NCBI GenBank assembly: GCA_965214605.1
Contig: OZ243961.1
Location: 553,917-617,916, forward strand
Direction: 5' to 3'
Source: an uncultured Candidatus Binatia bacterium
GTDB taxonomy: Bacteria > Desulfobacterota > Binatia > Bin18
Length of the DNA: 64,000 nt
Numbering within the stretch: the first letter of the stretch is position 1; every line of letters starts with the position of its first letter. The position numbers and the translations under genes were made by a program. Below the pieces are notes generated by a model. The model was not told the DNA's origin and made no database searches. It saw only the letters and a list, made by a program, of their open reading frames with translations. Shown here piece after piece: positions 25,353-44,721 of this stretch.

Positions 25353-25373
25353 ACTCGGCCCTCGGCCACGTCC

Positions 25374-25823: not shown

Positions 25824-25903
25824 GACTGTTCATTAAAGGACTTTCAGCCGACCGACAAGGGCGGCTGGCCGTTCCCGAACACCCAGGCTATGCTCTCAAC
25901 ACC

Positions 25904-26524: not shown

Positions 26525-26593
26525 ACCGGGGCCTTTTCCGTTGACAAGGGTGCGCAGAGCAGGGAATAATTCTGAGGGGCAGGGAGCGAGCAT

Positions 26594-27577: not shown

Positions 27578-27583
27578 GACGCT

Positions 27584-28840
27584 CTATGCCTGGTCTGGAA
27601 TCCGCAGAGTCCTGCCAATTCGCAGCCGCGAGTTGCCCAGTTGATTGATCTGCATCAGCGCCCGGACCGAGGTTCCATAGCGGCGAGCGAGGTGTGACAG
27701 AGTATCGCCCCGGCGGATGGTATGCAGACGCGGCTGCCGGACCACGCGCGGCTGCGTCCGGTGGTCTGGAATCCAGAGTTCCTGGCCAACCGCAATGCGC
27801 GAGGTACGCAGTCCATTGGTCCGCATCAGCGTTCGGACCGAGGTGTCGTAGCGGCGGGCGAGATGGCTCAAGGTGTCTCCAGCCCGGACCGTATAGAGTC
27901 GGCTCTTGGCCGAGTCCGCGTTCGGCCTAGGAGCAGATCGGGACCGGGAAGGCGTCCGCGCGGCAAGCTGAACGGGCGACCCCGGAGAGGAGTTCGACGG
28001 TAAAGGGATGCTGAGCCGGTGACCCGCGACAAGTTGCTGCAAATACCACAGGTCGTTGTCCTGACGCAGAGCGTCACGATCAACGCCAAAAGCGCGGGCC
28101 AGATTCAGGGTCGAGTCGCCAATCCGTGAGGTATAGGACAGCGTTGTCCCGTCCAGCTCAAAAACGGCCGGCGAATACGGATCGGGAGAGGCAAGCAGCA
28201 TACCGGCGTGCAGCTGATGGGCGGCAAGTACGGGGTTGTACAGGCGCAGCAGGATCTCTGGGACGCCTGTTGTGCGTGCTGCCGAGGGCCAGTCCTCACC
28301 CGGCCGCACCCGCCGCAGTCGCAGACGTTCGGCCTGACGCCGGATTGCGGGTTCATGCAGGCGCAACACCGATTTATACTGCTCAATCTGTATTACATCA
28401 TGGAGGACGGATAGCGGCAGAGCTGGCCGAGAGGTGAGTACCTGAGGGCCGCCGACATAGGCAGCCAACACATAGTCGTGGCGCTTCAAGCGCTCGGTAA
28501 GCTCGGCAAACCTCCGTATTCCGACTTCAAGATTGGCCTCGGCAGTATTTGCAGTTGCCTCCTCGGGGCCAGTCCGTAAATAGACGTTGCGCTGCAGTTC
28601 GCCCGAGGCGGACACAAAAGAGTCATTCCCTCCAGACTGGTACAGCATCAACGCCCGGGCCAGACGCGGATCAACCCCGTAACGGTCCGCAGCATTAAAC
28701 AGCAGGGCCTCAATCTGCATGCTTTTGCGGTACATACCGACAAAAGACGGGGACAGATCAGGTTTGGCCGACACCGCCTGAGTCCATAGCAACACGGCCA
28801 TGCTCAAAATAAGCTGGCTTCCTAGGCTGCGCTTGCCCAT
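27584..28840 (-). CDS. lytic transglycosylase-like protein with two C-terminal LysM domains
   Basis: signal peptide; SLT-like block; two LysM repeats (YTVRAGDTLSHLARRY... and HTIRRGDTLSHLARRY...). Confidence 0.65.
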   Translation of the reverse strand: MGKRSLGSQLILSMAVLLWTQAVSAKPDLSPSFVGMYRKSMQIEALLFNAADRYGVDPRLARALMLYQSGGNDSFVSASGELQRNVYLRTGPEEATANTAEANLEVGIRRFAELTERLKRHDYVLAAYVGGPQVLTSRPALPLSVLHDVIQIEQYKSVLRLHEPAIRRQAERLRLRRVRPGEDWPSAARTTGVPEILLRLYNPVLAAHQLHAGMLLASPDPYSPAVFELDGTTLSYTSRIGDSTLNLARAFGVDRDALRQDNDLWYLQQLVAGHRLSIPLPSNSSPGSPVQLAARTPSRSRSAPRPNADSAKSRLYTVRAGDTLSHLARRYDTSVRTLMRTNGLRTSRIAVGQELWIPDHRTQPRVVRQPRLHTIRRGDTLSHLARRYGTSVRALMQINQLGNSRLRIGRTLRIPDQA

Positions 28841-29085
28841 TGTCCACCTTTCCTCTCCTCAACAGCTTACGAGCTAGCGTCTGCAAAAACCCTCTGCAAA
28901 AGCTTCAATTGTCGAACTGGGGACTCCTATTATTGCTGTCAAAAGCACAGATCTCAAGCCGGACGAAGAATTTTCTTGCTCCTGCCCTTGGTCAGGTTCC
29001 ATCCACCGCCCCCCGCCATTGAGAAACCCAACTATTTTGCCTATGGTGTGCTAAAGCTGCGTCAACGCCTGTGCGAGGAGGGACA

Positions 29086-29187
29086 ATGGACAGGAGTCAA
29101 GGACAGGGACCGGCCTGGATTGTGTTTTTAGTCTGGATGCTCATTCCGCTCTTGGTTTTCTTTTTGATCGTTACGTTTACCGGCTAA
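29086..29187 (+). CDS. small hydrophobic peptide (33 aa)
   Basis: MDRSQGQGPAWIVFLVWMLIPLLVFFLIVTFTG; strong Shine-Dalgarno GAGGAGGG 5 nt upstream; below the ORF-track size cutoff. Confidence 0.3.
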   Translation: MDRSQGQGPAWIVFLVWMLIPLLVFFLIVTFTG

Positions 29188-29206
29188 GCCGGTTTCAGTA
29201 AGGAAA

Positions 29207-30238
29207 GTGGCTATGAAAACAGGCCGGTTCGTCGCTGGAGCCGTGCTCGGTTGGTTGCTGGGCTTCCCCTTCCTGGTGTTTTGCCAACAGACCGAGCCGG
29301 TCGCAAAAGCCAACGCTGTTCTGGCCACAATCGAAGGCTATTCCATCACCCAATCCGATATTGAGGAACGTACCAAGAGCGACATGCTCCGCCTCAATAA
29401 TCAGATTTACGCGGTCAAGAAACGGGCCGTTAACGCCCTGATTGATGAGCGACTGATGGAGATCGAAGCCGGCAAACATGGCCTCTCGCTCCAGGAGCTG
29501 TTAGAGCGCGAGGTCACAGACAAGGCGAAGGCGGTCACTGAAGAAGAAATCGAGGCATTCTACAAGGCCAACAAAACTCGTCTGGGCAATAAGCCACTGG
29601 ACGAGCTGAGAGACCGTATTGCCCGGCAGTTGCAGGGGGCCGCCCAGCGCGGGCGTCGACAGGCGTTCGTTCAGGAGTTGCGTAAAGCGGCCGCCATCAC
29701 CATGAACCTCAAGCCGCCAATTGTTGAGGTGGCAATTGATGGTGCCCCGACCCTGGGTCCGGCCGAGGCTCCGGTCACCGTGGTCGAGTTTGGCGACTAC
29801 GAATGCCCATACTGCGCCCGAGTTCAGCCCACCCTTCATAAAATCCGAGAGACCTATAAAGGTCAGGTCAAGTTCGTGTTTAAAGACTTCCCGCTATCCA
29901 TTCACCCCCAAGCCCAAAAAGCGGCCGAAGCAGCCCGGTGTGCGGGACAGCAGGACAAGTACTGGGACTATCACGACGTGTTGTTCCGTAATACCAAGGC
30001 CCTGCAAGTTGACAAGCTCAAACAATACGCGGCCGACCTGCAGCTCGACACGACGCGCTTCGACACCTGTTTGGACAGTGGCCAACAGGCGGACGCAGTC
30101 CGCAGGGATCTCGCCCAGGGCTCACAGCTTGGGGTCAGCGGAACCCCCACCTTTTTTATCAACGGCCGCTTTTTTTCCGGGGCACGACAGTTATCGGCCT
30201 TTCAGACAGTGATTGATGAGGTGCTAGCCGCAGACTGA
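29207..30238 (+). CDS. periplasmic thiol:disulfide oxidoreductase, DsbA-family thioredoxin domain with N-terminal helical (SurA-N-like) region
   Basis: signal peptide; VVEFGDYECPYCARV CxxC active site. Confidence 0.75.
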   Translation: MAMKTGRFVAGAVLGWLLGFPFLVFCQQTEPVAKANAVLATIEGYSITQSDIEERTKSDMLRLNNQIYAVKKRAVNALIDERLMEIEAGKHGLSLQELLEREVTDKAKAVTEEEIEAFYKANKTRLGNKPLDELRDRIARQLQGAAQRGRRQAFVQELRKAAAITMNLKPPIVEVAIDGAPTLGPAEAPVTVVEFGDYECPYCARVQPTLHKIRETYKGQVKFVFKDFPLSIHPQAQKAAEAARCAGQQDKYWDYHDVLFRNTKALQVDKLKQYAADLQLDTTRFDTCLDSGQQADAVRRDLAQGSQLGVSGTPTFFINGRFFSGARQLSAFQTVIDEVLAAD

Positions 30239-30261
30239 GTGAGGGGCGGGGAAGCGGCTCA

Positions 30262-31326
30262 TCAGGTTTGCAGCGCAGGCATGACCTGCTCGACAAACCG
30301 CCGCATGCTAGCCAAAACCTGGTTGTGGGGCACCAAGCCGCCTGGGTTAAACCAGCAGATGAGCTGATCCATCTTACACTGCCGGTGGACGGCGCGGATC
30401 TTTTCGACGCACTGCTCGGGCGGACCGTACAGCGCCATAGTATCGTCGATCAGCTCCCAGGTCACGGACTTCTGTCTCTGTCGGACTTCCTGCAAATAGT
30501 CGTAGGATGCCGCCCGACTTTGACCCCGCTCCCCAAGCTCTGCCTGGGTCGTCACCGTCCGAAAATAGTGCATGATACTCGGCTCAACCTGTTGGCGTAC
30601 CTGCAGCTGGCTATCGGCAACATACACGGGAAACAGTACTGCGCTGTCGGCCCGCTTATCCCGATGGCCGGCAGCCCGAAACGCCTGGTGGTAGCCGCCT
30701 AGATGCTGGGCGAGTTTGGGCATGGGATTAATCGGAGAGGCAACAAAGACGGGATAGCCGCGCTGGCCGGCAAAGGCGGCTGTTTCTGGGCTATTGGCCG
30801 CAATCCGCAGCGGCGGGTGCGGTTTTTGGAGCGGCTTGGGCACGACCGAGGTAGAGGGAATCTGGAAATAGCGGCCCTCAAATGCACAGGTGTCCTGGCT
30901 CCAGGCTTGCTCGATAATGGTCAGGGCTTCTTCAAAACGCTCTCGGCTCTCGTCCCTTGACACTCCCAGCCCCTGAAAATGAATGGCGATTGTGCCGCGC
31001 CCCACCCCCAATTCAAGCCGTCCGTTGCTGAGGAGATCAACGGTCGCCGCGTCCTCGGCAGTCCGTAGCGGGTGCTGCAGTGACAGCAGTGCCACGGCCA
31101 ACCCCAAGCGAATGCGCCGCGTCCGCTCGGCCAGGGCCGCCGCAACGATTAATGGCGAGGGCATAATCGAAAACGGTCGGTTAAAGTGCAACTCAGCCAG
31201 CCAGGCCGTATCGAAACCTAGTTCATCCGCGTATTGGATCTGTTCGAGTGTCTCCTGGTATCGGCTGACCTCGTTTTGACCAGGAGCGCAGGGCAGCTGG
31301 TAAAAAAGACCGAATTTCATGGGCAA
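30262..31326 (-). CDS. LLM-class flavin-dependent oxidoreductase (paralog A)
   Basis: MKFGLFYQLP...ETLEQIQYADELGFDTAWLAELHF; ~70% identical to the 47419..48474 product. Confidence 0.75.
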   Translation of the reverse strand: MPMKFGLFYQLPCAPGQNEVSRYQETLEQIQYADELGFDTAWLAELHFNRPFSIMPSPLIVAAALAERTRRIRLGLAVALLSLQHPLRTAEDAATVDLLSNGRLELGVGRGTIAIHFQGLGVSRDESRERFEEALTIIEQAWSQDTCAFEGRYFQIPSTSVVPKPLQKPHPPLRIAANSPETAAFAGQRGYPVFVASPINPMPKLAQHLGGYHQAFRAAGHRDKRADSAVLFPVYVADSQLQVRQQVEPSIMHYFRTVTTQAELGERGQSRAASYDYLQEVRQRQKSVTWELIDDTMALYGPPEQCVEKIRAVHRQCKMDQLICWFNPGGLVPHNQVLASMRRFVEQVMPALQT

Positions 31327-31404
31327 GTCCTTCCGGGCGATGCACTGCGTTTCGGCGTACCCCTCTTGGCCACTCCAAAACGACTATGGTAATTACCTCA
31401 TACT

Positions 31405-32610
31405 ATGTCAGGAAAGAAAAACAAGGCGGGACGCCGCAAGAGTGCACAAGCGGCGATCAGCCCAGCAGCCCTGCCCTTAGCAACCGGTCCGCTGATGCTG
31501 ACACGTATCCTAGCCCTTCTGGGCCTGGGGGTCAGTGCCTATCTGTCTGTGGTGCATTATCAGGCCGAGGCCGAGGATTTAGTGACCTCCCATTTTTGCC
31601 AGGCTGGGTCGGTCATCGACTGTACCTCGGTGCTCAACAGCTCATATGCCACCTTATTTGATCTCCCGGTGGCCCTCTGGGCTATTGGAGCCTACATTAT
31701 CACGCTCGTCCTGACTTTTACCCCCCAGGCGCTCGCCCTGCTTTTTGTGTGTTCATGGCTGTTTGTGTTTGGCCTGTACATGGCCGCTGTCTCGTTCTTC
31801 GCCCTCCAGTCGGTGTGTCTGTTCTGCACGGCACTGTATCTGATCAATATCGGGCTGTTTGTCAGCGCCATCATCTTGGTGCGCTCCTCTGCCGACTTCG
31901 AGCTGAGTCGGTTTGCCTTTGGCCTGCTCGGCTGCGTCATTGTAACCGCTGGGATTGGCTTGTGGCAAAACCAACAAGCTCACCTCACGCCGCTCGATTT
32001 TAGGGCGCCGAGCGCCGAACGCATGGATAGGAGTTTTGTGCAGTTTTACAACGAACAACGCGAGGTGGCGGTCCAAAACCAAGAGCGCTATGTCAAGGGC
32101 GCTCAGGACGCGTCGCTGCGCATTACCGAGTTTGTCGATTTCCGGTGCCCCAGCTGCGCCGTGGCCCATGACTACCTGACCTATCTGCGTGCGGCCAACA
32201 AGGGCGAGGTCCGCGTGGTCTTTCACCACTACCCGCTCGACCAGGCCTGTAACCCTATTGCTCAACAAGTCCATCCCTCGTCTTGCGCTGCAGCCATTGC
32301 CTCGGAGTGCGCCGGCGACCAAGACGCGTTTTGGGCCTATGCCGATCGCCTGTTCGCCAACCAAAAACGCTTCAGTCGCGCGGAGCTAGTCGATCACGCC
32401 GAGGCGCTGGATCTGGACCGTGAGCGGTTCGAGTCCTGCCTCGGAGACACTCGTATGGCAGATCGGGTGCGCCGAGATGTTGAAGAGGGACAGCGGCTTG
32501 GAATCAGCGCCACGCCGACCCTCATCATCAACGGGCGCGTGATCGAGGGACTGCCGCCGCCGAAAAAGCTGGCGACCCTGGTAACGCTGCAGCAGCAGCA
32601 GAATCGGTAA
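31405..32610 (+). CDS. vitamin K epoxide reductase (VKOR) domain fused to thioredoxin/DsbA-like domain
   Basis: VKOR 4-TM core with CxxC-loop Cys (HFCQAGSVIDCTS) and C-terminal EFVDFRCPSCAV thioredoxin CxxC. Confidence 0.75.
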   Translation: MSGKKNKAGRRKSAQAAISPAALPLATGPLMLTRILALLGLGVSAYLSVVHYQAEAEDLVTSHFCQAGSVIDCTSVLNSSYATLFDLPVALWAIGAYIITLVLTFTPQALALLFVCSWLFVFGLYMAAVSFFALQSVCLFCTALYLINIGLFVSAIILVRSSADFELSRFAFGLLGCVIVTAGIGLWQNQQAHLTPLDFRAPSAERMDRSFVQFYNEQREVAVQNQERYVKGAQDASLRITEFVDFRCPSCAVAHDYLTYLRAANKGEVRVVFHHYPLDQACNPIAQQVHPSSCAAAIASECAGDQDAFWAYADRLFANQKRFSRAELVDHAEALDLDRERFESCLGDTRMADRVRRDVEEGQRLGISATPTLIINGRVIEGLPPPKKLATLVTLQQQQNR

Positions 32611-32675
32611 AGGCAGACCTGAGTCCCTGAGTTCAGCCGCAGAGCTTATGCACTGCCCATCAGACTCTGACTCGT

Positions 32676-33350
32676 TTAGCCAACGATAATATGCTCCTTA
32701 GTAATAATCACCGGCAGCTTGCCGGCCGCGATAAAATTCGGCTCGTCAGCCCGGGTTCGCTCGTATTCGGGGGTCGTGGCCGAGAGGCGCATCGCTTGAG
32801 TGCTGTCAAACCAAGTGAGGGCCACGCCGTCGTAGATCGGCGTTTTCCCGCTCTTATAAATTGACGGCCGGGTATGACTCTGAACGTAGCGTCTAATCAC
32901 CGGAATGGCAGCCCCAAGCGGACCATGAATCTCGCGCCAGTGGGTCTGAAAGTCCTCAATCGGCATCCCCGGTTTATGGTTCACAAACTCGACGTTTTTG
33001 ACCCCATCGGCCGGAACCGGGCCGTCTTTGATGAGGTGCTCTTCGGTAATAATCGAGCCTTGGCTGTCTCCGTCCATGAAGTTCGCCTCGTCGCTCTGGA
33101 CTGCGGCAAGCTCTGATGTACCGACCTGGCGACGCATGACCTCGGTATTGTCGAACCACAGCTCGGCCATGCCGTCGTACACGGGTTCTCTCTCACGACG
33201 GTAGCCGGACAGAATGGTGTGGGACTGAACGTAACGACGAATGCCCGGCAGTTTGACCACGATATCGGCGTGGGTGGTTCGCCAGTAGGCCTGAAAGTCC
33301 TCGACCGGCATACCGGCTTTCCGTTTAAAAAAAGCGATCAGTTTGATCAT
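32676..33350 (-). CDS. tandem EthD-domain (dimeric alpha/beta barrel) protein (paralog A)
   Basis: two EthD-like halves (IAFFKRKAGMPVEDFQAYWRTTH... and VNHKPGMPIEDFQTHWREIHG...); start set at MIKLIAFF. Confidence 0.6.
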   Translation of the reverse strand: MIKLIAFFKRKAGMPVEDFQAYWRTTHADIVVKLPGIRRYVQSHTILSGYRREREPVYDGMAELWFDNTEVMRRQVGTSELAAVQSDEANFMDGDSQGSIITEEHLIKDGPVPADGVKNVEFVNHKPGMPIEDFQTHWREIHGPLGAAIPVIRRYVQSHTRPSIYKSGKTPIYDGVALTWFDSTQAMRLSATTPEYERTRADEPNFIAAGKLPVIITKEHIIVG

Positions 33351-33433
33351 ACGTCTTTTCCTCCTACGTCTAGCTATGGCATGCTGTTGGCCTGGGTCAA
33401 GGCACGCGGCGATCCCAAACAGAAGGATACGGC

Positions 33434-34624
33434 ATGGATTTTCAATATTCGTCCGAGCAAGAAGCGTTTCGGAGCGAACTGCGCGGCTGGCTAGAGGCAC
33501 ACCTCCCCAAAGAGCTGTGCGTTGAGGACGCTATGGATGAGCGGGTCGCGCCCGATCGCCCGACGTTTGAGAAACGCCGGGCCTGGCAGCGTACGATGTA
33601 TGAAGCCGGTTGGGTCGGTATTCCGTGGCCCAAAGAGTACGGAGGACGGGGGGCTGGGCTGATGGAGCAAATTGTGTTTGAGGAGGAGTATACGCGGGCC
33701 CAGGCCCCAATCCTGCCCGGTTTCTCGGGGATTGCGCTATGCGGTCCGACCCTTATGCAGTGGGGGACCGAGGCACAGAAAGAGAAGTTTTTAGCCCGTA
33801 TCCTGCGCGGTGACGACATCTGGTGTCAGGGATACTCTGAACCCGGGGCTGGTTCCGACCTGGCCAGTCTCCAGACCCGGGCGGTTGAGGACGGTGATGA
33901 GTTTGTGGTCAACGGTCAGAAGGTCTGGACCTCGGGCGCCCAGTATGCAGATTGGATCTTTATGCTGGTCCGAACCAACCCCGACGCGCCCAAACATCGG
34001 GGCATCAGCTATCTGCTGGTGAATATGAAAACCCCAGGAGTGACGGTTCGGCCCCTGGTGCTGATCAACGGTCATGCCCATTTTAACGAGATCTTTTTTG
34101 AAGACGTGCGGGTGCCCAAAGAAAACCTGGTCGGTCCGCTGAACGAGGGCTGGAAGGTGACCATCACCACCCTGATGTTTGAGCGCGGTATTGCCGGCGG
34201 CGGAAACCAGGGTGACCAGATCAACCGTTTGGCTCAGCTGTCCCGCCGCGTTGACCTCAACGGCCGGCCAGCCTGGGAGCAATCCTGGGTCCGTGACAAA
34301 CTGGTCCAGCTCCACATTGAAAATGAGAGCCTCAAATACACCCGTCTGCGCAGTCTGACCAAACAGCTCAAGGGTCAGCCACCCGGCCCCGAAGGCTCAA
34401 TGCTCAAGCTATGCAGCTCTGAGCTGGGCGTCAGAATCGCCGAGTTTGCCAGTGAATTATTGGGCCACAACGCGATTGTCGATCTGCCGTCCAAAGCCGT
34501 ACCCGATGCACCGCGTTGGGTGAATCGGGTGCTCAGCGCCCGCCAATATACAATTTCGGGCGGGACCAGCGAGATTCAGCGAAATATTATGGGAGAACGC
34601 GTCTTGGGTCTGCCCAAAGGCTAG
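33434..34624 (+). CDS. acyl-CoA dehydrogenase
   Basis: 396 aa; ACAD N/M/C domain pattern (YGGRGAG..., CQGYSEPGAGSDLASLQT). Confidence 0.8.
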   Translation: MDFQYSSEQEAFRSELRGWLEAHLPKELCVEDAMDERVAPDRPTFEKRRAWQRTMYEAGWVGIPWPKEYGGRGAGLMEQIVFEEEYTRAQAPILPGFSGIALCGPTLMQWGTEAQKEKFLARILRGDDIWCQGYSEPGAGSDLASLQTRAVEDGDEFVVNGQKVWTSGAQYADWIFMLVRTNPDAPKHRGISYLLVNMKTPGVTVRPLVLINGHAHFNEIFFEDVRVPKENLVGPLNEGWKVTITTLMFERGIAGGGNQGDQINRLAQLSRRVDLNGRPAWEQSWVRDKLVQLHIENESLKYTRLRSLTKQLKGQPPGPEGSMLKLCSSELGVRIAEFASELLGHNAIVDLPSKAVPDAPRWVNRVLSARQYTISGGTSEIQRNIMGERVLGLPKG

Positions 34625-35163
34625 CCACGTTTGCGCACCTGCCACTCGCTGCGGAGTACGGCCATCAGCAGCGTGTTATAGTAGCGGCCCTCAGCACGGC
34701 GATTTTCGCGCAGCAGCCCCTCGCGGCGGAAACCCGCCTTTTGATAGGCCCGGATACCGCGCGTGTTACGCTCGTCCACATGCAGCCAAACTCGGTTCAG
34801 GTCCAACTGACCAAAAGCATAGTCAAGCATCAGACCGCTCACCTCTACGCCGTAGCCCTTGCCCATCTCGCCGATGAGCAGGCCAAAGCTAGCTTTGCGG
34901 TTGTCCAAATCGAGTTGATGTAACTCAGTGATGCCGATTAGGCCATCGGTATCGCGGCGCACGACGCCGAGCAGCAGGTCGTGCCCAGTGCGGTATAGCC
35001 GCTCAATACCGTCGGCCACAGCCCTGATATCAACCGCTGGGAAAAAGTCGCCCAGGTGTCGGGTCAGATCCCGGCTCTGCAGCCAGGGCACGATTTGCTC
35101 AGCATCACTGCGCTCCAAAGGACGCAGATACACGCGCCCACCCGTTAGCACGGTTTCCTGCAT
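34621..35163 (-). CDS. GNAT-family N-acetyltransferase (RimJ/RimL-like)
   Basis: acetyl-CoA binding block; YLRPLERSDAEQI N-terminus; start set at internal Met. Confidence 0.65.
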   Translation of the reverse strand: MQETVLTGGRVYLRPLERSDAEQIVPWLQSRDLTRHLGDFFPAVDIRAVADGIERLYRTGHDLLLGVVRRDTDGLIGITELHQLDLDNRKASFGLLIGEMGKGYGVEVSGLMLDYAFGQLDLNRVWLHVDERNTRGIRAYQKAGFRREGLLRENRRAEGRYYNTLLMAVLRSEWQVRKRG

Positions 35164-35289
35164 CCATCCTCCATCAACGCCATTGGTGATCTCTTCCCAA
35201 CGTGGTGATCGACTATCAGCGATACTTTTTTGAACCGTCCACATCCTAGCACCGCACCGCTCTTGACGCGAAACCTGAGACCTGCCAGC

Positions 35290-35349
35290 ATGTGGAGTAT
35301 GCGTCTACAGTATTCTCTCAATCGACAGGACTGGTGGTGGCTGCCTTAG
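35290..35349 (+). CDS. trpL: trp operon leader peptide
   Basis: 19-aa ORF MWSMRLQYSLNRQDWWWLP with three consecutive Trp codons, immediately upstream of tandem terminator hairpins and trpE(G). Confidence 0.6.
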   Translation: MWSMRLQYSLNRQDWWWLP

Positions 35350-35384
35350 CAGGTGGCCCGAACCTTATAGTACTGTCTCTATAC

Positions 35385-35462
35385 GGAGCCGCCTTGACCA
35401 ACGAGGCGGCTTTTCTTTTTTCAAAGACCGTCGCCTCGGGGTTGGGTGACGGTCTTTTTTTG
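35385..35462 (+). promoter_or_regulatory. trp attenuator: two consecutive intrinsic-terminator hairpins with U-runs
   Basis: GCCGCCTTG-ACCAA-CGAGGCGGC TTTTCTTTTTT then GACCGTCgcctcggggttgggtGACGGTC TTTTTTT. Confidence 0.6.
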
Positions 35463-35506
35463 GGTCAAGACCCGGCCAACGGGGTAGGACGAAGGAGGAA
35501 GGATTC

Positions 35507-37687
35507 ATGGCCGACGTAGCTGCTCACATCCCCAGCGTGCACACCTACCGCACCCAGGGTGGGATTGATATTCGTCGCAGCATTGAAAGTATCCCACTTC
35601 AGGACGCTATCGAGCCAATCATTGACGGTCTCAATAGTCAGCGCGGCGTCCTTTTGGCGTCAAGCTATGAGTATCCGGGCCGCTATACACGCTGGGACAT
35701 CGGCTTTGTCAATCCCCCCCTATCCCTGAGCTGTCGACAACGAAAATTTCGGCTGTCGGCCCTAAACGAACGCGGCCAGATTCTCCTGCCAGGGCTAGCG
35801 CGGGCATTTGAGGCCCTGCCCGTACTCGCCTCGTCTGAGCGTAACGAGAGTCACATATCAGGCACGGTTCGGGAGGTGGAGAGCCGTTTTGCCGAAGAGC
35901 AACGCAGCAAACAGCCCTCGATCTTTTCGCTGCTCCGAGCGCTCATTGAGCTGTTTGCGTCGGATGAGGACGCCAATCTTGGGCTGTATGGCGCCTTTGG
36001 CTATGATCTGGCCTTTCAGTTCGAACCCCTGCGCCTTCACCTCACCCGCCCCGAAGAGCAACGCGACCTGGTGTTGTATATTCCCGATGAACTAATCGTG
36101 GTTGACCACCGCCGCGAACAGGCGCTGCGCTATCGCTACGATTTCGAGCTTGACGGGCGCTCCACCTACAATTTGCCCCGGGTTGGAACGAGCCAACCCT
36201 ACCAGGGAACAGGTACCGTTGCTCAGGCCTGCGACCATCAACCGGGTGAATACGCCGAAGGCGTTCGGGTGGCCCGCCAAGCATTCCAGCGCGGCGACCT
36301 GTTTGAGGTCGTGCCGGGTCAGACCTTTTTTGAGGTCTGTCCTACGCCGCCCTCAGAACTGTTTCGACGTCTGCGTGAGCGCAATCCATCCCCGTACGGA
36401 TTTCTGATCAACCTCGGCCAAGCCGAATACCTAGTTGGCGCGTCCCCCGAGATGTACGTCCGGGTGGAGGGCGACCGGGTGGAGACCTGCCCGATTTCCG
36501 GCACAATCGCCCGCGGTCGGGATCCGATCAACGATGCCAGCCAAATCTTGCGGCTGCTCAACTCCCGCAAAGACGAGTCTGAGCTGACCATGTGTACAGA
36601 TGTTGACCGCAACGATAAATCCCGGATCTGTCAACCGGGTAGCGTACGGGTGATTGGGCGGCGACAGATTGAGATGTATTCGCGACTGATTCACACGGTC
36701 GATCATGTTGAGGGTCGCCTACGGCCCGAGTTTGATGCCCTGGATGCGTTTTTGGCCCACACCTGGGCGGTGACGGTCACCGGTGCGCCAAAAGCGTGGG
36801 CCATGCAGTTTATTGAGGAGCACGAAAAATCACCCCGCGCCTGGTACGGCGGGGCCGTCGGTCTGCTCGGCTTTAATGGCAATATGAATACAGGGCTCAC
36901 CCTGCGTACGATTCGGCTCAAAGACGGCGTGGCCCAAGTCCGAGCCGGGGCCACCCTGTTATACGACTCCAACCCGGACGATGAAGAACGCGAAACCCAT
37001 ATCAAAGCGTCTGCCTTCTTGGATGCTATTCGTCGCCCGAGTGAAAGCCAAGGCGAGCGGTCGTTGGAAGTCGCTAGCCCAGGCCGGGGTAAACGGATTC
37101 TGCTAGTCGATCATCAAGACTCTTTTGTGCATACCTTGGCCAACTATTTGCGTCAGACCGGGGCCGAGGTCTTGACCCTCCGAGCCGGTTTTTCGCACCA
37201 TGAATTTGAGGCCCGGCAACCTGACCTCGTCGTCCTGTCGCCCGGTCCAGGCCAACCGTCGGATTTTGATGTTTCCGGCACTTTGGCGGCCGTACTTGAA
37301 CGCCAGCTGCCCGTTTTTGGCGTGTGTCTCGGTTTACAGGGTATTGTCGAGCACTTCGGCGGCGAACTGTCCGTGCTGCCTTACCCAATGCATGGCAAAG
37401 CGTCAGCCGTGCGGGTGGTGGGCGGACGGATTTTTGAGGGCCTCCCGCGCGAGCTCACGGCAGGCCGCTATCACTCTCTGTTCGCCCGCAAAGACCGGCT
37501 GCCCTCCCAACTCCACATCACCGCGGAGAGCGATGATGGTGTGATCATGGCGGTTGAGCACCGTGAGCTGCCGATTGCCGCTGTCCAGTTTCATCCCGAG
37601 TCTATTTTGACTCTGGATGAAGACTATGGCCTGCGCCTGATGTATAACGTGGTAGTCAGCCTATGCGCCGACGCAGGCCTTCCCTAG
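35507..37687 (+). CDS. trpE: anthranilate synthase, fused component I/II TrpE(G)
   Basis: 726 aa; N-terminus matches rhizobial-type TrpE(G) (GGIDIRRS...SYEYPGRYTRWDIGFVNPPL); C-terminal class-I glutamine amidotransferase (GVCLGLQG). Confidence 0.85.
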   Translation: MADVAAHIPSVHTYRTQGGIDIRRSIESIPLQDAIEPIIDGLNSQRGVLLASSYEYPGRYTRWDIGFVNPPLSLSCRQRKFRLSALNERGQILLPGLARAFEALPVLASSERNESHISGTVREVESRFAEEQRSKQPSIFSLLRALIELFASDEDANLGLYGAFGYDLAFQFEPLRLHLTRPEEQRDLVLYIPDELIVVDHRREQALRYRYDFELDGRSTYNLPRVGTSQPYQGTGTVAQACDHQPGEYAEGVRVARQAFQRGDLFEVVPGQTFFEVCPTPPSELFRRLRERNPSPYGFLINLGQAEYLVGASPEMYVRVEGDRVETCPISGTIARGRDPINDASQILRLLNSRKDESELTMCTDVDRNDKSRICQPGSVRVIGRRQIEMYSRLIHTVDHVEGRLRPEFDALDAFLAHTWAVTVTGAPKAWAMQFIEEHEKSPRAWYGGAVGLLGFNGNMNTGLTLRTIRLKDGVAQVRAGATLLYDSNPDDEERETHIKASAFLDAIRRPSESQGERSLEVASPGRGKRILLVDHQDSFVHTLANYLRQTGAEVLTLRAGFSHHEFEARQPDLVVLSPGPGQPSDFDVSGTLAAVLERQLPVFGVCLGLQGIVEHFGGELSVLPYPMHGKASAVRVVGGRIFEGLPRELTAGRYHSLFARKDRLPSQLHITAESDDGVIMAVEHRELPIAAVQFHPESILTLDEDYGLRLMYNVVVSLCADAGLP

Positions 37688-37808
37688 CAGACGCCCCACA
37701 GTCGCGTCGCTGGGCAGAGGCAGGCCGCACGGATTGCCAGGCGACCCGACTCACTCCGGCTCGGTCACCGGGGTCCAGGCAGCCACTCCCGGCACCGCAA
37801 CGAGCAGG
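37599..37808. repeat. direct repeat copy A (3' end of trpE(G) plus 3' end of an MFS-like frame), ~85% identical to 41678..41886
   Basis: direct sequence comparison in this window. Confidence 0.8.
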
Positions 37809-38300
37809 TCCCAGAATGCGGCTGGTTCGTCGAGGTCGAAAATCAGTGGGGGAATGCTGGGGCCGTGGCGGTGGATGTGCCACTCCAAACCGGTGGTAAA
37901 AGCGATACGGGCATCGAACCCGGTGGTTTCCCTGATGATTTGAGCCGCGTGTTTCGTGTCGCTGAGGTTGCCTGACGGCTGACACCTCAGCAGTATGGCC
38001 GGTGTGCCGCCGGAGTATAGTGTGTAACTTCCCGGGTGCTCTGGCGACGGTTCGCGATGCGCAGCGGTGAATCCAATGGCGTCCAGTATGGGATTGATGA
38101 CGGCTTCTTGGGTGATGCCTGTCGAACGTTGCAGGTTGATGTCGCGCTGAGCGGCGGCGTTCTGGGCGTCGGCGATGGTCTGAGTCAGTGCCGCGCGGTG
38201 CGCTTCGGCGCGATGCTTCGCATCGTCTTGATGGTGTGATCTTCGTGCATTGTCCCTTTTGCTCCTTCGCTTCCAGTGGACTCGTGATGTAGTAGTGACG
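37753..38300 (-). pseudogene. restriction-endonuclease-like (HsdR N-terminal/Mrr-like) domain ORF lacking a canonical start
   Basis: frame with no ATG reads ...INPILDAIGF...AILLRCQPSGNLSD...IAFTTGLEWHIH..., resembling the type I R-subunit N-terminal domain family; C-terminally in-frame with the MFS-tail copy VAVPGVAAWTPVTEPE. Confidence 0.3.
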
Positions 38301-38764
38301 CCGGCAGTCCTGCCGTATCACAGGCGCATAACGATTCGCAAAAATCCCAGGCGCCGATTCTGTGCTTGCGCTCCGATCGGCGCCGGCTTGATACCTTCCC
38401 TTGGGGTCGGCGACTCTTTGCCTTCGTCTTGCTCTTGTGCTGTTCTGAGCAGCGGAATCGCCTGATTCTATGGTTGCCGGTACCGGGGGATGGTACAGTT
38501 TTGGCCGCGGCAGGACGGGCAAGTCGAAGGCTGGGGCGGTCTGTCTGTCCTGCCGGGTCTGTCGGTTGCGCTCTCTTTGCCAATATCCGTAGCAGATCCG
38601 TCGTTGGCAGACTGCGCAGCGTGGGCCGGCTGGGTCGGCATGGTCGGCTATTGGGGCAGGTGTGGCAGATGATGATGTCGTCGGCTATATGTCCTCTCTG
38701 GTAGGGCTGTGCAAAGGCTATCCGGGTCATGCAGTGTGTGGACGAATTGAGTGCGAGCTTCGGA

Positions 38765-39935
38765 AACGGTTTTCGTTTGGCTCGCGGCGGCACGGCAGTT
38801 GCTCTGGTTTACGGAGGGCGGGATTGCGTGCTCCCGGGATGGCGTCACGCGGGGATTGCATCCCCCTCTCATCTCCAGCTAGTATCCGCAACAGGGGGGC
38901 ATCGCCCATGCCCAAGAGGTTTGAGGACACGACGAGATCCATGATCCGCCCCGTGCAGACGTCAAAATCAATGAACCTGAACTTGGTGCGCCGGCCTGTT
39001 CCGGCAACTCAACGCGCAGCAACCGCTCAGCGTTTCGCACGGCAAACAGCGCAGCAACCTGCGCGCTAGGACGGAGAGAACGACCATGAGCGCTACACTG
39101 AGCCCCGCAGAACGCGCCCGCTTTCTCCAGGCGCTGAAGGAGGACTCCGACTTCCGCGAGGCGGTACGCCAGCACCTCCTGAGCGACGCACTGCTGGAAC
39201 TGCCGGAAAAATTCGCCCAGTTCGCCGCCTACGTCAACGAATTTATCGCCAACACCAACGAATTTATCGCCAACACCAACAAATTTATCGCCGACCAAAA
39301 GGCATTCAATACCCGCACCGAAGAACGCCTGGACCGGATTGACGACCGTCTGGACCGTGTTGAAGGCCGTCTGGACCGTGTTGAAGGCCGTCTGGACCGT
39401 GTTGAAGGCCGTCTGGACCGTGTTGAAGGCCGTCTGGACCGGATTGACAACCATCTGGACCGGATTGACAACCGGCTGGACCGGATTGACGACAGCATCG
39501 GCATCCTGAAAGGCAACGCAGCGCGACGTCTGCTCAGAGATCACCTCGAAGGCGTCCTAGAACTCGTAGGCGTAGAGGATTTCGTAAGAATCCTGTCCAG
39601 CAGCGACCTGATTCGCCTGATGCGCACCTCAGGCATGGCTCGCGAGATACCCTACGGAGAACGGCGGAGTTTCTATGCCGCCGATCTGGTCATCGAAGCC
39701 GCCGACGCAACGGGTGCCCCCTGTTATATCACGGCCGAGGGGTCCTTCACCGCGGATAAGCGGGACAGCAGCCGGGCGATTCGGAATGCCGCATTCCTGA
39801 CCCGGCTTACCGGCCACCCGGCCTCCCCTGTCGTTGCCAGCATGAGGAACGACTACGAAGTGCAAGAGCTGGTCAATCAGGAAACCATCCGCTGGTTCCA
39901 GCTGGACGAGCGGGACCTCGAAGCGGATTAGGACG
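38765..39935. repeat. tandem duplication unit 1 (~1.2 kb: 320-bp leader plus repeat-protein gene)
   Basis: near-identical to 39995..41095 apart from internal 21-bp repeat copy number. Confidence 0.8.
39086..39931 (+). CDS. hypothetical protein with variable heptad (21-bp) tandem repeats and conserved C-terminal domain, copy 1
   Basis: 281 aa; (FIANTNE/K)x2 ... (RLDRVEG)x4 (RLDRIDN)x2 coiled-coil repeats; C-terminal ~150 aa identical to copy 2. Confidence 0.6.
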   Translation: MSATLSPAERARFLQALKEDSDFREAVRQHLLSDALLELPEKFAQFAAYVNEFIANTNEFIANTNKFIADQKAFNTRTEERLDRIDDRLDRVEGRLDRVEGRLDRVEGRLDRVEGRLDRIDNHLDRIDNRLDRIDDSIGILKGNAARRLLRDHLEGVLELVGVEDFVRILSSSDLIRLMRTSGMAREIPYGERRSFYAADLVIEAADATGAPCYITAEGSFTADKRDSSRAIRNAAFLTRLTGHPASPVVASMRNDYEVQELVNQETIRWFQLDERDLEAD

Positions 39936-39994
39936 TGATACGATCGCCGTGCCGCGGCCAGCCAAATTCCAGCAAGTGCTTATAGCACCGGTTC

Positions 39995-41095
39995 GCTTTG
40001 GCCAGCGGTTTTCGTTTGGCTCGCGGCGGCACGGCAGTTGCTCTGGTTTACGGAGGGCGGGATTGCGTGCTCCCGGGATGGCGTCACGCGGGGATTGCAT
40101 CCCCCTCTCATCTCCAGCTAGTATCCGCAACAGGGGGGCATCGCCCATGCCCAAGAGGTTTGAGGACACGACGAGATCCATGATCCGCCCCGTGCAGACG
40201 TCAAAATCAATGAACCTGAACTTGGTGCGCCGGCCTGTTCCGGCAACTCAACGCGCAGCAACCGCTCAGCGTTTCGCACGGCAAACAGCGCAGCAACCTG
40301 CGCGCTAGGACGGAGAGAACGACCATGAGCGCTACACTGAGCCCCGCAGAACGCGCCCGCTTTCTCCAGGCGCTGAAGGAGGACTCCGACTTCCGCGAGG
40401 CGGTACGCCAGCACCTCCTGAGCGACGCACTGCTGGAACTGCCGGAAAAATTCGCCCAGTTCGCCGCCTACGTCAACGAATTTATCGCCAACACCAACGA
40501 ATTTATCGCCAACACCAACAAATTTATCGCCAACACCAACAAATTTATCGCCAACACCAACAAATTTATCGCCAACACCAACGAATTTATCGCCGACCAA
40601 AAGGTCTTCAATGCCCGCACCGAAGAACGCCTAGACCGGATTGACGACAACATCGGCATCCTGAAAGGCAACGCAGCGCGACGTCTGCTCAGAGATCACC
40701 TCGAAGGCGTCCTAGAACTCGTAGGCGTAGAGGATTTCGTAAGAATCCTGTCCAGCAGCGACCTGATTCGCCTGATGCGCACCTCAGGCATGGCTCGCGA
40801 GATACCCTACGGAGAACGGCGGAGTTTCTATGCCGCCGATCTGGTCATCGAAGCCGCCGACGCAACGGGTGCCCCCTGTTATATCACGGCCGAGGGGTCC
40901 TTCACCGCGGATAAGCGGGACAGCAGCCGGGCGATTCGGAATGCCGCATTCCTGACCCGGCTTACCGGCCACCCGGCCTCCCCTGTCGTTGCCAGCATGA
41001 GGAACGACTACGAAGTGCAAGAGCTGGTCAATCAGGAAACCATCCGCTGGTTCCAGCTGGACGAGCGGGACCTCGAAGCGGATTAGGACGTGATA
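39995..41095. repeat. tandem duplication unit 2
   Basis: see unit 1. Confidence 0.8.
40325..41086 (+). CDS. hypothetical protein with variable heptad tandem repeats, copy 2
   Basis: 253 aa; (FIANTNE/K)x5 and no RLDRVEG block; otherwise identical to copy 1. Confidence 0.6.
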   Translation: MSATLSPAERARFLQALKEDSDFREAVRQHLLSDALLELPEKFAQFAAYVNEFIANTNEFIANTNKFIANTNKFIANTNKFIANTNEFIADQKVFNARTEERLDRIDDNIGILKGNAARRLLRDHLEGVLELVGVEDFVRILSSSDLIRLMRTSGMAREIPYGERRSFYAADLVIEAADATGAPCYITAEGSFTADKRDSSRAIRNAAFLTRLTGHPASPVVASMRNDYEVQELVNQETIRWFQLDERDLEAD

Positions 41096-41677
41096 CGACC
41101 GCCGTGCCACCGCATATTTGCCGGCTGGCGCCACCACCGGACAAGTGAGCGGTGCCAGCCGTTCCCGAAACGGCCGCGCAGTTGCCGGAACCACCCCTGC
41201 GATTTCGCGGGTGTCTCAAATAATCAGACTGAATTTCAGGAGACATCACTATTCAGCGCTGAGTCGCGAGGTCTAGCCCGTAGCGTTCCGCTGATTGTGC
41301 CGTCGGGAGACTGCTCGGCCGGGGAGGCGCTGGCGAGCTGTGGTTCGGGGAGGCTGTCGCCATCGGCGAACATCCAGACCACATCAATGGGGTAGGCGTT
41401 GTTGGTGAGTACCACGTTGCGCAACGCCGTCTTGAGGTCCTCGGGCACCATATCGCGGCGTCCGTGCTGATAGGGGCGCCGGGATGAGAGCCGGGGCCGC
41501 CTACTGTGGCGTGTGTCCTTGTTTGGGGACGACGAGGAGTGTCGGGGGGAGAGGCGTGGAGTGCCTGTGGGCAAAATCTCTCGCTTTGATGCCGGGGGGG
41601 CCGGCGGGCTGCCCCGTTTGGGTGGCTGGGGACTGCCCGCGGACTGCCGGGCCGGCGATTAGGTGATGAGCCCGCCG

Positions 41678-41886
41678 AGTCTATTGTGACTCTGGATGAA
41701 GACGATGGCCTGCGCCTGAGGTATAACGGGAGCGCTGGCCGAGGCGCCGCCGCCGGCCTTCCCCGGCAGACGGCCCCCAGGCGCATCGCCGGGCAGAGAC
41801 AGGCCACACGGATTGCCCGGCGCCCCGCCTCACTCCAACTCGGTCACCGGGGTCCAGGCAGCCACTCCCAACACCGCAACGATCAT
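41678..41886. repeat. direct repeat copy B (degraded trpE(G) 3'-end copy plus the authentic MFS 3' end)
   Basis: aligns to 37599..37808; trpE tail reads VTLDEDDGLRLRYNGSAG... instead of LTLDEDYGLRLMYNVVVSLCADAGLP*. Confidence 0.8.
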
Positions 41887-43107
41887 CAGCCCGCTGGTGG
41901 CCGCGCAGGTGAGAAGAGGGCCGAGCCAATCGACCAGGACCCCAGCCAGCGGCGCCCCGATCAGGCCGGTCGTTCCCATAAACCCGAGGGTGTAGACCGA
42001 CAGGATCCGAGCCCGGTGGGAGGGCCGCGCCTGCTCTTGGAACACCGTCCGGCCGGCGCTCATAAAAATAGAGGCGCTCGTCCCCCATACCCCCACCACT
42101 AGCAAGGCTCCCCAGAAGGGCAGGCCAAACGACAGACTGCCAATGCAGCCGGCCCCGACGACCAGTGCCGTCACTTGGGCTCGTCCCTTACGCCGGATCC
42201 CACCGCGCCACAGGATGGTCCCTGCGCCAAAGATCGTGCCTAGTGGAAAGGCCATATTGAGCGTGGCGAGCTGAGCCACGTCGCCGCCATAGAAGTCCCG
42301 GACCAGCAACGGCAGGACGACCAGATAGGGACCGATAAAGCCGACCCCGACCACCATCACCAGTAACTGGAGTGGACGTAGGACCGGCGACCCAAAGACC
42401 TCCCGAACGCCCGCAACAAGGTCGCTCAGGCGAGCCCGCGTCTGCCCTGCTGTACTGCGTAACGATGGGGGGGGAAGTTTGCGCAACGTGGGCGCTCCAG
42501 CCAGCAAAACGAGCCCATGCATACACAGGGCCGGGACAATCCCCAGCCAACGCGCGCTGCCGGCCAAGAGCGCCCCCAGTGCTTGCGATGCCCACTGCGT
42601 CAGCGTCATACCAGCAACCGCCCGGAGCATGTTCGGTCCGGCAACTTCTGACAGCAGGGCGTCACGTGCCGGCATGGCAAACGCCTGCACCGTGCCCATA
42701 CCCAGGGCATAGCCAATCAGCAGGCTCATCGACAGCCAGCCCTTGGCCACAACGGCCACCAAACACCCGGACAGGGTGGCGGCGACGAGGTGTAGCCCAA
42801 TCAATAGCGTCCGACGATCGTTGCGGTCGGCCACCATCCCGCCGAGCAGAACCAGCAGGGTCGAGGGCAGCATGAGCGCGCTCTGGGCAATACCGACCCA
42901 ATCGGCATCGGCCTGCAAAACGCCGACAACCAACCATGAAAACAACACGCCCTGCATGCCAAAGGCGGTAAACCACGAGCCAAGGCCGGCCACGAACCAC
43001 AGGTAGAAGACCGGTTGCGAAGATGAGGAGGTTATGACCCGCCGCCCGGCGAGGGCGGGATGTGCTTGTTCATCGACCGTGAGTTTAACCGGGGGTGAGC
43101 TTGGCAC
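41830..43107 (-). CDS. MFS transporter
   Basis: 12-TM pattern, 425 aa. Confidence 0.75.
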   Translation of the reverse strand: MPSSPPVKLTVDEQAHPALAGRRVITSSSSQPVFYLWFVAGLGSWFTAFGMQGVLFSWLVVGVLQADADWVGIAQSALMLPSTLLVLLGGMVADRNDRRTLLIGLHLVAATLSGCLVAVVAKGWLSMSLLIGYALGMGTVQAFAMPARDALLSEVAGPNMLRAVAGMTLTQWASQALGALLAGSARWLGIVPALCMHGLVLLAGAPTLRKLPPPSLRSTAGQTRARLSDLVAGVREVFGSPVLRPLQLLVMVVGVGFIGPYLVVLPLLVRDFYGGDVAQLATLNMAFPLGTIFGAGTILWRGGIRRKGRAQVTALVVGAGCIGSLSFGLPFWGALLVVGVWGTSASIFMSAGRTVFQEQARPSHRARILSVYTLGFMGTTGLIGAPLAGVLVDWLGPLLTCAATSGLMIVAVLGVAAWTPVTELE

Positions 43108-43128
43108 GTATCATCCTCATTCAGGGGC

Positions 43129-43914
43129 TTATTGCTCTTCGTACCACTGGATTGCGCCCCGCAGCCCACGCTCTTTTCTGACGCGCCGAATCTCGTCATT
43201 GCCCGAGCCAAAGTGAAAAATGGCATCATATTCGGCGCCCGCCAGAACCGTGCTCCGAAAGCCTTGCAGATCCATGGCGCGGTTGATCGCCAATTTCTCC
43301 AACCGCAGCTTTTCCGCCGGCACCTTGGCCACCCGCCGGGCGTACCGATAGGTTTCGGCCTCCAGAGCGTCGGCCGGAAAGGTCCGGGTGGCAAAACCCA
43401 TGGCCTCGGCCTCTTTACCGCTGATCTGACTGCCTGGCAAAAACGCCATATATTTGGTCCGGTGCGGCCCGACCATCCAGTTCCACATTGAGCTCACAAA
43501 GCCCGCCCCGGCGGGGAGCGAGGGAAAGCCGAGTCGGGCATCGTCGGCCATGAAAATGACATCCGAGCAGGCACAGATCTGACTCGCCCCGGCCAGGCAG
43601 TAGCCATGGACCATGGCAATCACCGGCTTGGGCAACTCGCGCAGGCTGAGCCAACGTTCAATCATTGTTTGGAGTTCGGTTCGGTCGCCATCAACGGTTT
43701 TCGCTCCCCCGCCGCCGGCCAGGTCATAGCCGGCCGAAAACGCCCGTCCAGCGCCCCGAATGATAAGGACTTTGATCTCCTCATCGCAACCAGCCAAGGC
43801 AATTGCCTGAGAAAATTCGTCTAACAACGCCGGGTTCATGGCGTTCAGCTTCTCGGGTCGATTGAGCGTCAGCGTTCCGATCCGGTCCTGTTTGTCCAAG
43901 AGTACCAGGTCCAT
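43129..43914 (-). CDS. enoyl-CoA hydratase/isomerase (crotonase family)
   Basis: MDLVLLDKQDRIGTLTLNRPEKLNAMN; oxyanion-hole blocks. Confidence 0.8.
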   Translation of the reverse strand: MDLVLLDKQDRIGTLTLNRPEKLNAMNPALLDEFSQAIALAGCDEEIKVLIIRGAGRAFSAGYDLAGGGGAKTVDGDRTELQTMIERWLSLRELPKPVIAMVHGYCLAGASQICACSDVIFMADDARLGFPSLPAGAGFVSSMWNWMVGPHRTKYMAFLPGSQISGKEAEAMGFATRTFPADALEAETYRYARRVAKVPAEKLRLEKLAINRAMDLQGFRSTVLAGAEYDAIFHFGSGNDEIRRVRKERGLRGAIQWYEEQ

Positions 43915-44082
43915 AAGCCCCTCCCGTGCAGACCGTCCTTTGGCTTTTCCCCGCTCTGCACTTGTCCAGCCAAGCATTCAGAACCGTCTGAGTCTAGAGG
44001 CCCCGAGGCCGGACACGCCTAGCGCGCTTGCATAACACACAAAAAACCGGACATAATCCGCCGCCAAACAGGAGGAAACACG

Positions 44083-44700: not shown

Positions 44701-44721
44701 GTAGGGGACGCGAAAAAATCT

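Follow-up and report, generated by a model that had tools for sequence, protein, structure and literature searches.

The window analyzed here, a stretch of 64,000 nucleotides of DNA from a Candidatus Binatia bacterium, contains upstream of its fused anthranilate synthase gene, trpE(G), what is probably a ribosome-mediated attenuator in which two terminators placed in series would be controlled by a single ribosome stall, through a shift of pairing register along seven RNA segments. This is a known kind of element, and what is new in it is the combination of tandem terminators with a register-shift chain. A first-pass annotation of the DNA had described it as a classical trp attenuator. All the elements of such an attenuator are indeed present, but the second terminator needs an additional antiterminator, formed by segments 4 and 5 (4:5; helices are named below by the segments that pair), which lies outside the classical four-segment model.

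The trpE(G) Gene and Its Surroundings

The gene downstream of the leader had been read as a fused trpE(G), and this identity was borne out by matches to TIGR01815 (TrpE-clade3; 1178.6 bits) and NF010081 (1184.2 bits) and by the presence of a fused glutamine amidotransferase domain. The gene and its translation signal are located as follows:

35492 to 35498, + strand: Shine-Dalgarno sequence of trpE(G), AAGGAGG, 8 nt before the ATG at 35507
35507 to 37687, + strand: trpE(G), fused anthranilate synthase of 726 amino acids, monocistronic, the next gene being on the minus strand

No other trp genes lie between about 21 and 48 kb, and none was found in the window. The closest trpE(G) loci belong to Candidatus Binatia MAGs (L001, L026, and L201; 88–91% amino-acid identity), and none of them is rhizobial.

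A GNAT gene (Acetyltransf_3; 34621–35244, minus strand) is divergent from the leader and is syntenic in several Binatia-type loci (L201–L203, L205, L207, and L208); the promoters of the GNAT gene and of the leader have in common a 45-nt intergenic stretch that reaches to the leader promoter. Ten kilobases upstream of trpE(G), the region 23290–24834 (+) codes for a FAD-dependent enzyme with a Trp_halogenase Pfam match (7e-24) and with no evident link to the attenuator. Tandem repeats were also observed in the window. A 44-nt unit is repeated 12.5 times, with 92% matches, at 58995–59537, and it is probably non-coding since its period is no multiple of three; repeats of 21 nt (seven codons) occur at 39235–39493 and 40474–40594, in or beside ORFs 39086–39931 (which shows a weak DUF7310 coiled-coil match) and 40325–41086.

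A Tryptophan-Rich Leader ORF on a Putatively Leaderless Transcript

The leader had been annotated as a Trp-rich peptide of 19 codons. The corresponding ORF exists at 35290–35349 (+) and reads MWSMRLQYSLNRQDWWWLP followed by a stop codon, with four Trp codons, three of them consecutive, and a peptide ending in WWWLP; its likelier start, however, is the ATG at 35299. The elements around this start are:

35263 to 35268, + strand: putative -35 hexamer TTGACG, with a 17-nt spacer to the -10 hexamer, conserved in relatives
35286 to 35291, + strand: putative, unmapped -10 hexamer CAGCAT, overlapping the ATG at 35290
35299 to 35349, + strand: trpL-like leader ORF, MRLQYSLNRQDWWWLP followed by TAG, 16 codons, putatively on a leaderless mRNA
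35332 to 35340, + strand: three consecutive Trp codons, the putative ribosome-stalling and sensing site, with no variation in these columns of alignments A1 and A2

A start at the ATG at 35290 was rejected because it overlaps the conserved -10 hexamer and the ATG itself is not conserved in relatives. The leader probably starts at 35299, with 16 codons and three Trp, and the Trp at codon 2 of the 19-codon reading would probably fall outside the transcript. An arrangement of TTGAC[GT], 17 nt, and [CA]AnnAT is shared by the window and 13 Binatia-type relatives, and in locus L012 it takes the form TTGACG, 17 nt, TATGAT. The position of the -10 hexamer is conserved relative to both the -35 hexamer and the start codon (15 loci), and an in-frame ATG or GTG is found 6, 7, or 10 nt past the -10 hexamer in 15 of 15 loci, giving peptides of 15–17 amino acids. 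A scan for consensus promoters made no call at 35263–35291, where the -10 hexamer matches at only three of six positions.

Since this promoter geometry puts the transcript start at the ATG at 35299, and no Shine-Dalgarno sequence precedes either this ATG or the one at 35290, we infer that the trpE(G) leader transcript probably starts at or adjacent to 35299 and that the mRNA is leaderless. The S. meliloti trpL transcript begins at the A of its ATG and is leaderless (PMC6614838). Counting against a leaderless model, in many relatives the transcript would have to begin with GTG as its start codon.

Small ORFs with WWW or WW that end a few codons later are found 100–230 nt upstream of trpE(G) in most of 80 related loci. 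The sequence TGGTGGTGG occurs three times in the window against 0.7 expected, the other two copies being in unrelated sequence. The overlapping 75-aa ORF at 35292–35519 had been suspected of being spurious, and same-frame stop codons in L201, L001, L026, and L203 showed this suspicion to be right.

Two Predicted Terminators and the Terminating Register

Two GC-rich hairpins with T runs had been claimed to precede the trpE(G) ATG, and both were located there (T1 and T2). The segments and hairpins of the leader are:

35324 to 35377, + strand: extended 1:2 structure, -23.7 kcal/mol, in which an outer stem (35324–33 with 35368–77) encloses the 1:2 hairpin
35339 to 35346, + strand: segment 1, GGCUGCCU, the last Trp, Leu, and Pro codons, pairing with segment 2
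35351 to 35360, + strand: segment 2, AGGUGGCCCG, pairing with segment 1 or segment 3, and 5' strand of antiterminator 1
35384 to 35396, + strand: segment 3, CGGAGCCGCCUUG, pairing with segment 2 (antiterminator 1) or segment 4 (T1)
35402 to 35410, + strand: core of segment 4, CGAGGCGGC, 3' arm of T1, pairing with segment 3 or segment 5
35430 to 35438, + strand: core of segment 5, GUCGCCUCG, 5' arm and loop of T2, pairing with segment 4 or segment 6
35385 to 35422, + strand: terminator 1 (T1, 3:4 hairpin), stem at 35385–35413 of 12 pairs and -19.6 kcal/mol, U-rich tail at 35411–35422
35423 to 35461, + strand: terminator 2 (T2, 5:6 hairpin), stem at 35423–35457 of 14 pairs and -21.6 kcal/mol, U7 at 35455–35461

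T1, whose tail is TCTTTTTT, and T2 are the two strongest terminator-like sites within positions 25001–45000 of the window, and the leader region folds more stably than shuffled sequences (z = -4.0). Conservation was followed in 25 leaders that share the second hairpin, namely the window, 14 loci from a genome scan, the metagenome locus L100, and nine loci reached through protein homologues. In alignments of relatives, 95–96% of cells in T1 were paired, and T2 showed compensatory changes at six pairs among the 25 leaders. The 1:2 hairpin (35339–46 with 35351–58; -10.9 kcal/mol) keeps seven of its eight pairs in at least 24 of the 25, and in a set of 38 sequences it had 97.6% of cells paired, or 96.9% when taken together with T1.

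Equilibrium folds of the complete leader consisted of 1:2, T1, and T2, and both terminators were always present, with or without a ribosome mask. Since these folds always contain both terminators, the model proposed below relies on the order of folding.

In several relatives (L002–L004, L007, L010, and L204–L208) the sequence CGUCCG, corresponding to Arg-Pro codons within leader codons 3–6, is complementary to CGGACG just after segment 2. Its pairing would make an outer stem round 1:2, and the equivalent in the clade of the window is placed differently, at 35324–33 with 35368–77.

A Predicted First Antiterminator That Depends on Ribosome Position

Folding of the nascent RNA was calculated with RNA extending only to 35394–35401 and with a ribosome footprint masked at the 5' side. 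The footprints are assumed: a mask ending at 35344–35350 represents a ribosome with its A site on any of the three Trp codons, and one ending at 35359 a ribosome at the UAG codon. With masks ending at 35344–35350, the minimum-energy nascent fold was 2:3 (-18.7 kcal/mol), in which AGGUGGCCCG (35351–60) pairs with CGG-A-GCCGCCU (35384–94); the helix itself has an energy of -18.1 kcal/mol. When the mask ended at 35359, 2:3 was lost and the energy fell to -5.1 kcal/mol, so that 2:3 is the minimum-energy nascent fold only when the mask ends at 35344–35350. The folding check proposed with the first-pass annotation was run in this way and yielded an antiterminator incompatible with the terminator: it is 2:3, it depends on ribosome position, and it is conserved. 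In alignment A1, 96% of the cells of 2:3 were paired, and in alignment A4, which covers more lineages (38 sequences), 91.1%, against 29–56% for slid controls.

A Predicted Second Antiterminator and the Balance Between Registers

Segment 4 is also complementary to segment 5. The 4:5 helix, lengthened by pairing of 35396–99 with 35440–43, reaches -22.7 kcal/mol; it is as stable as T2 (-21.6 kcal/mol) and is transcribed before it. When 2:3 was held, the minimum-energy fold of the RNA to 35457, the end of the T2 stem, had 4:5 in place of T2; the full-length equilibrium fold of the window leader with 2:3 enforced retained T2. With segment 1 masked, 2:3 plus 4:5 amounts to -40.8 kcal/mol versus -41.2 kcal/mol for T1 plus T2. 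Under such a mask the two registers would be about equal, and the read-through register would be the first to form. Without a mask, the terminating register gains from -10.9 kcal/mol (1:2) to -23.7 kcal/mol (with the outer stem). The two registers are in this respect thermodynamically coherent.

The 4:5 pairing is kept in all of the 25 relatives, with 92.6% of cells paired. As a duplex it equals 3:4 and 5:6 in strength in almost every relative, and when segment 5 was shuffled for comparison the median z was -3.1. Conservation extends to a base in the loop of T2, C35437, which is kept in 23 of 25 sequences and whose partner in 4:5 is G35403. Segments 3 (GCCGCCU) and 5 (GUCGCCU) are similar strings, and since segment 5 resembles segment 3, the 4:5 complementarity could partly be a legacy of hairpin duplication.

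A further segment lies downstream of T2:

35467 to 35472, + strand: segment 7, AAGACC, pairing with the 3' end of segment 6 (35451–56) in the read-through conformation

The 6:7 helix had 91.6% of cells paired and three pairs with compensatory changes, and it would be formed only after the T2 decision. A chain extending to the Shine-Dalgarno sequence, through pairing of GAGG in segment 6 with CUCC, was rejected for now, with no consistent change in accessibility (0.45 vs 0.48).

Conservation and Covariation of Both Registers

In the 25 leaders, the terminating register had 90.8% of cells paired and 11 pairs changed on both sides, and the read-through register 93.8% of cells paired and eight pairs changed on both sides; slid controls gave 32–57%, relative to which these percentages are inflated because the helices were defined from the window sequence, and none of 500 shuffles reached the observed values. 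T2 and 6:7 covary clearly. The pair 35427:35453 is A-U in 17 sequences and G-C in eight, and position 35455 changes jointly with both of its partners, 35425 and 35468. Covariation in 2:3 and 4:5 is thin, consisting mostly of changes from G-C to G-U, and only one 4:5 pair is changed on both sides. Segments 2 to 5 are nearly invariant and GC-rich. Near-invariance of 2:3 and 4:5 fits segments that would each serve two partners, although it is weaker evidence than covariation. One relative, L030, shows a coherent change through segments 1 to 5 (GGCAGC with GCUGCC).

A U run follows 5:6 in 13 of the 25 relatives, namely the clade of the window, L203, the L007 type, the L008 type, and L012; these counts were taken from tail composition in the alignment, an ungapped terminator scanner having missed T2 stems that contain mismatches. 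The remaining 12 keep the 5:6 hairpin without a U run, and because of them the ancestral role of 5:6 may have been other than termination. Locus L012 (2300–2456), from a Chloroflexia-labelled MAG, has 3:4 without a U run and carries a U run only after 5:6. Since 5:6 is its only terminator, and judging from its sequence, the Trp codons of L012 must reach that terminator via 2:3 and 4:5, which would make this locus a natural control.

Proposed Mechanism

The model that we propose is as follows. When tryptophan is plentiful, the ribosome would read the three UGG codons, arrive at the UAG codon at 35347–49, and cover segment 2. After its release, 1:2 would re-form and segments 3 and 4 would make T1; a polymerase escaping T1 would then meet 5:6, that is, T2. 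With T1 and T2 in series, the two escape probabilities would consequently multiply to give basal read-through. Under a shortage of charged tRNA-Trp, the ribosome would stall on 35332–40 with segment 1 covered. Segment 2 would then pair with segment 3 (antiterminator 1), and segment 4, thus freed, would engage segment 5 (antiterminator 2) ahead of the synthesis of segment 6. T1 and T2 would both remain unformed, and trpE(G) would be transcribed. If there is no translation, 1:2 and the outer stem would hold the RNA in the terminating register. In this scheme the ribosome footprints, the folding order, and actual termination are what we infer around the elements and energies described above.

Distribution of the Leader Family

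Scanning the region with Rfam revealed no family, T-box, or riboswitch at threshold. The best match, at 35325–35416, was RcsR1 (RF02552), with 22.4 bits against a gathering threshold of 60 and E = 0.1; RcsR1 is another name for rnTrpL, the attenuator RNA of trpE(G) in S. meliloti. No RcsR1 match at E up to 1 was obtained in nine related loci, L075, L074, and the alphaproteobacterial ones among them. Filing the element under RF02552 was rejected on account of the sub-threshold score, not reproduced in the nine relatives. The Rfam family Trp_leader (RF00513) had no match at E up to 10.

A covariance model was trained only on the 25 Binatia-type cores and gave one match in the window. Full-length matches, correct in position and strand, were obtained in untrained loci upstream of trpE(G): L079 (Actinomycetota, 5e-9), L045 (Sphingomonadales, about 2e-7), L056 (Rhodospirillaceae, about 1e-6), and L074 (Bartonella, 0.02), to be read with the proviso that invariant UGG codons raise covariance scores. 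Further untrained matches were found in Polyangiaceae (L058), Methylomirabilota/Rokubacteria, Dormiibacterota, Acidobacteriota, and Myxococcota, and a Chloroflexota MAG label is also among the family, although phylum labels from MAGs may be wrong. The picture that emerges is of one leader family accompanying trpE(G) widely, including in Alphaproteobacteria, and it suggests joint movement of trpE(G) and its regulator.

Outside the Binatia-type group, the majority of members possess only one terminator. Single-terminator relatives (L016, L020, L021, L024, L029, and others) carry after T1 an element UCGCC(C/U)C that resembles segment 5, and the same loci have a CCGGCUCCUC...GAGGAG hairpin over the Shine-Dalgarno sequence, which may be a translational stage. 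Scanning metagenomes with the pattern TGGTGGTGGN{36,52}GGAGCCGCC yielded matches that were nearly all due to chance in coding DNA, and only L100 and L162 were genuine.

Other trpE(G) genes have different upstream regions. The leader is absent upstream of trpE(G) (upstream of position 2501) in L006, L009, L037, and L042, which are Binatia and related loci; immediately before the gene, the last three have in common GCGTGACTTT(T/G)CT(G/A)AC, possibly an operator bound by a protein. Two Chloroflexi-labelled loci, L049 (about 100–231) and L066 (about 200–335), have no WWW leader and show instead a T-box-like GGGTGGCACCACG followed by a hairpin. These two GGGTGGCACCACG loci, of which L049 is cut at its 5' end, matched no Rfam family at gathering threshold.

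Taking these observations together, we tentatively picture a modular "domino" attenuator, in which one stall on three Trp codons would flip seven segments and disarm two terminators, variants would use the first, the second, or both hairpins, and the cassette, related to rnTrpL, would have travelled with trpE(G) across many phylum labels; RNAs released at the terminators, about 120 and 165 nt long, may in addition act in trans. We rate this wider picture, taken as a whole, at slightly less than an even chance.

Alternative Explanations

The register shift over both terminators has to be weighed against an arrangement in which only T1 is regulated, as in the classical four-segment model, and 5:6 is an unregulated backstop, a leaky terminator, or a leftover of T1 duplication, with the 4:5 complementarity as a by-product. 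The similarity between segments 3 and 5 (GCCGCCU vs GUCGCCU), the thin covariation specific to 4:5, and the retention of T2 in the full-length equilibrium fold of the window with 2:3 enforced are all in its favor. Nevertheless, an unregulated stem of 14 pairs followed by U7 downstream would cancel induction, 4:5 is maintained in 25 of 25 relatives across deep divergence (92.6% of cells, including the base in the T2 loop), it is as stable as T2 and earlier transcribed, and in L012 the sole terminator is 5:6. We regard this arrangement as unlikely. A mainly translational or mRNA-stability switch, made of 5:6 with its alternatives 4:5 and 6:7, would leave the U run of the window clade as incidental. 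It would account for the 12 of 25 relatives that conserve 5:6 but lack the U run, for the covariation of 6:7, which forms too late for termination, and for a CUCC anti-Shine-Dalgarno element just past segment 7 in many relatives. This element has been lost, however, in the clade of the window, the U run reappears in each of the five separate sub-lineages listed above, and constrained partition functions gave Shine-Dalgarno accessibilities of 0.45 versus 0.48 between registers, with the read-through register higher in 15 of 25; such a switch as the main function appears very improbable.

The leader could also serve chiefly to produce a trans-acting sRNA like rnTrpL, perhaps together with a peptide like peTrpL, with T1 and T2 isoforms of about 120 and 165 nt regulating other trp operons and attenuation in cis being only partial. 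In S. meliloti, termination in the trpE(G) leader yields rnTrpL, which targets trpDC in trans (PMC6614838), and peTrpL is functional in its own right (PMC7298713); here the best sub-threshold Rfam match is to RcsR1, the synonym of rnTrpL, and trpE(G) lies apart from other trp genes. The RcsR1 score is nonetheless far under threshold (22.4 vs 60), and a role of this kind would add to attenuation in cis and not compete with it, so as the principal function we judge it decidedly unlikely. Hardly credible, finally, is an element that senses no translation at all, with the small ORF arising by chance and a protein, a metabolite, or a tRNA (T-box) acting on the hairpins. It is true that the leader is missing, and other motifs stand upstream, in some trpE(G) relatives from Binatia and Chloroflexi, but no Rfam riboswitch, T-box, or other family reached threshold, the Trp codons do not vary, loci with many phylum labels agree in frame, stop position, and peptide length, and the antiterminator tracks ribosome position just as the classical model demands. 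The reading that we prefer thus remains a ribosome-mediated attenuator in which one stall would control two terminators.

Comparison with Known Systems

Attenuation by leader peptides is a textbook mechanism, but nearly all work on it concerns Proteobacteria and Actinobacteria. Naville and Gautheret (2010) described it as known only in Proteobacteria, Actinobacteria and, through their own work, some Firmicutes (PMC2965389). Searches of the literature, whose incomplete coverage makes them weak evidence, found no leader-peptide attenuator with two terminators and no trp regulation in Binatia. With two terminators and one sensor, the repression ratio should multiply without a second sensor, which constitutes a testable design principle, and the stalling signal may be checked a second time some tens of nucleotides further on. 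The alignment and the covariance model are ready for annotating leaders that are now missed by gene callers and by Rfam.

The first-pass annotation had likened the architecture to that of rhizobial trpE(G). The leader is related to the rhizobial one, but its host is Candidatus Binatia and the rhizobial attenuator, with three mutually exclusive stem-loops, has one terminator (PMC6614838). As in trpL/rnTrpL of Sinorhizobium meliloti, Agrobacterium, and Bradyrhizobium, WWW or WW lies in the C-terminal half of the peptide (peptides in PMC7298713), and 1:2, the antiterminator, and the terminator exclude one another (PMC6614838). Both stand upstream of a monocistronic fused trpE(G), and the mRNA is leaderless in S. 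meliloti and putatively so here. Unlike rhizobial rnTrpL, the window adds a second terminator, the 4:5 antiterminator, and the 6:7 helix; rnTrpL is an RNA of about 110 nt with a single terminator (SL3), whereas the window has two, with release at T1 expected at about 120 nt.

The geometry of E. coli trpL opposes 1:2 plus 3:4 to 2:3, and a ribosome at the stop codon masks segment 2. The window shares with it the tandem Trp codons, the same segment logic, and a similar spacing between the Trp codons and the terminator end (about 89 nt here). It differs in that E. coli trpL depends on a Shine-Dalgarno sequence, has two Trp codons, and precedes an operon, whereas the leader in the window is putatively leaderless, with three Trp codons, two terminators, and a single gene. 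Enterobacterial his attenuators have six segments, with A:B, C:D, and E:F opposed to B:C and D:E, and only E:F is a terminator; a six-segment attenuator of the his type was reportedly described by Johnston et al. in 1980. In the window, as in the his leader, the stall would propagate by a register shift over at least six alternately complementary segments with two exclusive registers. Unlike in the his leader, U runs follow both 3:4 and 5:6, and the regulatory codons and the downstream gene differ. L012 is arranged exactly as the his leader, with the last hairpin alone as terminator. Two serial terminators in one 5' leader are known from the rimP-leader of some Gammaproteobacteria and from tandem riboswitches (PMC2965389). 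Neither of these has a leader peptide, and tandem riboswitches provide a separate sensor for each terminator, whereas in the window one sensor would serve both.
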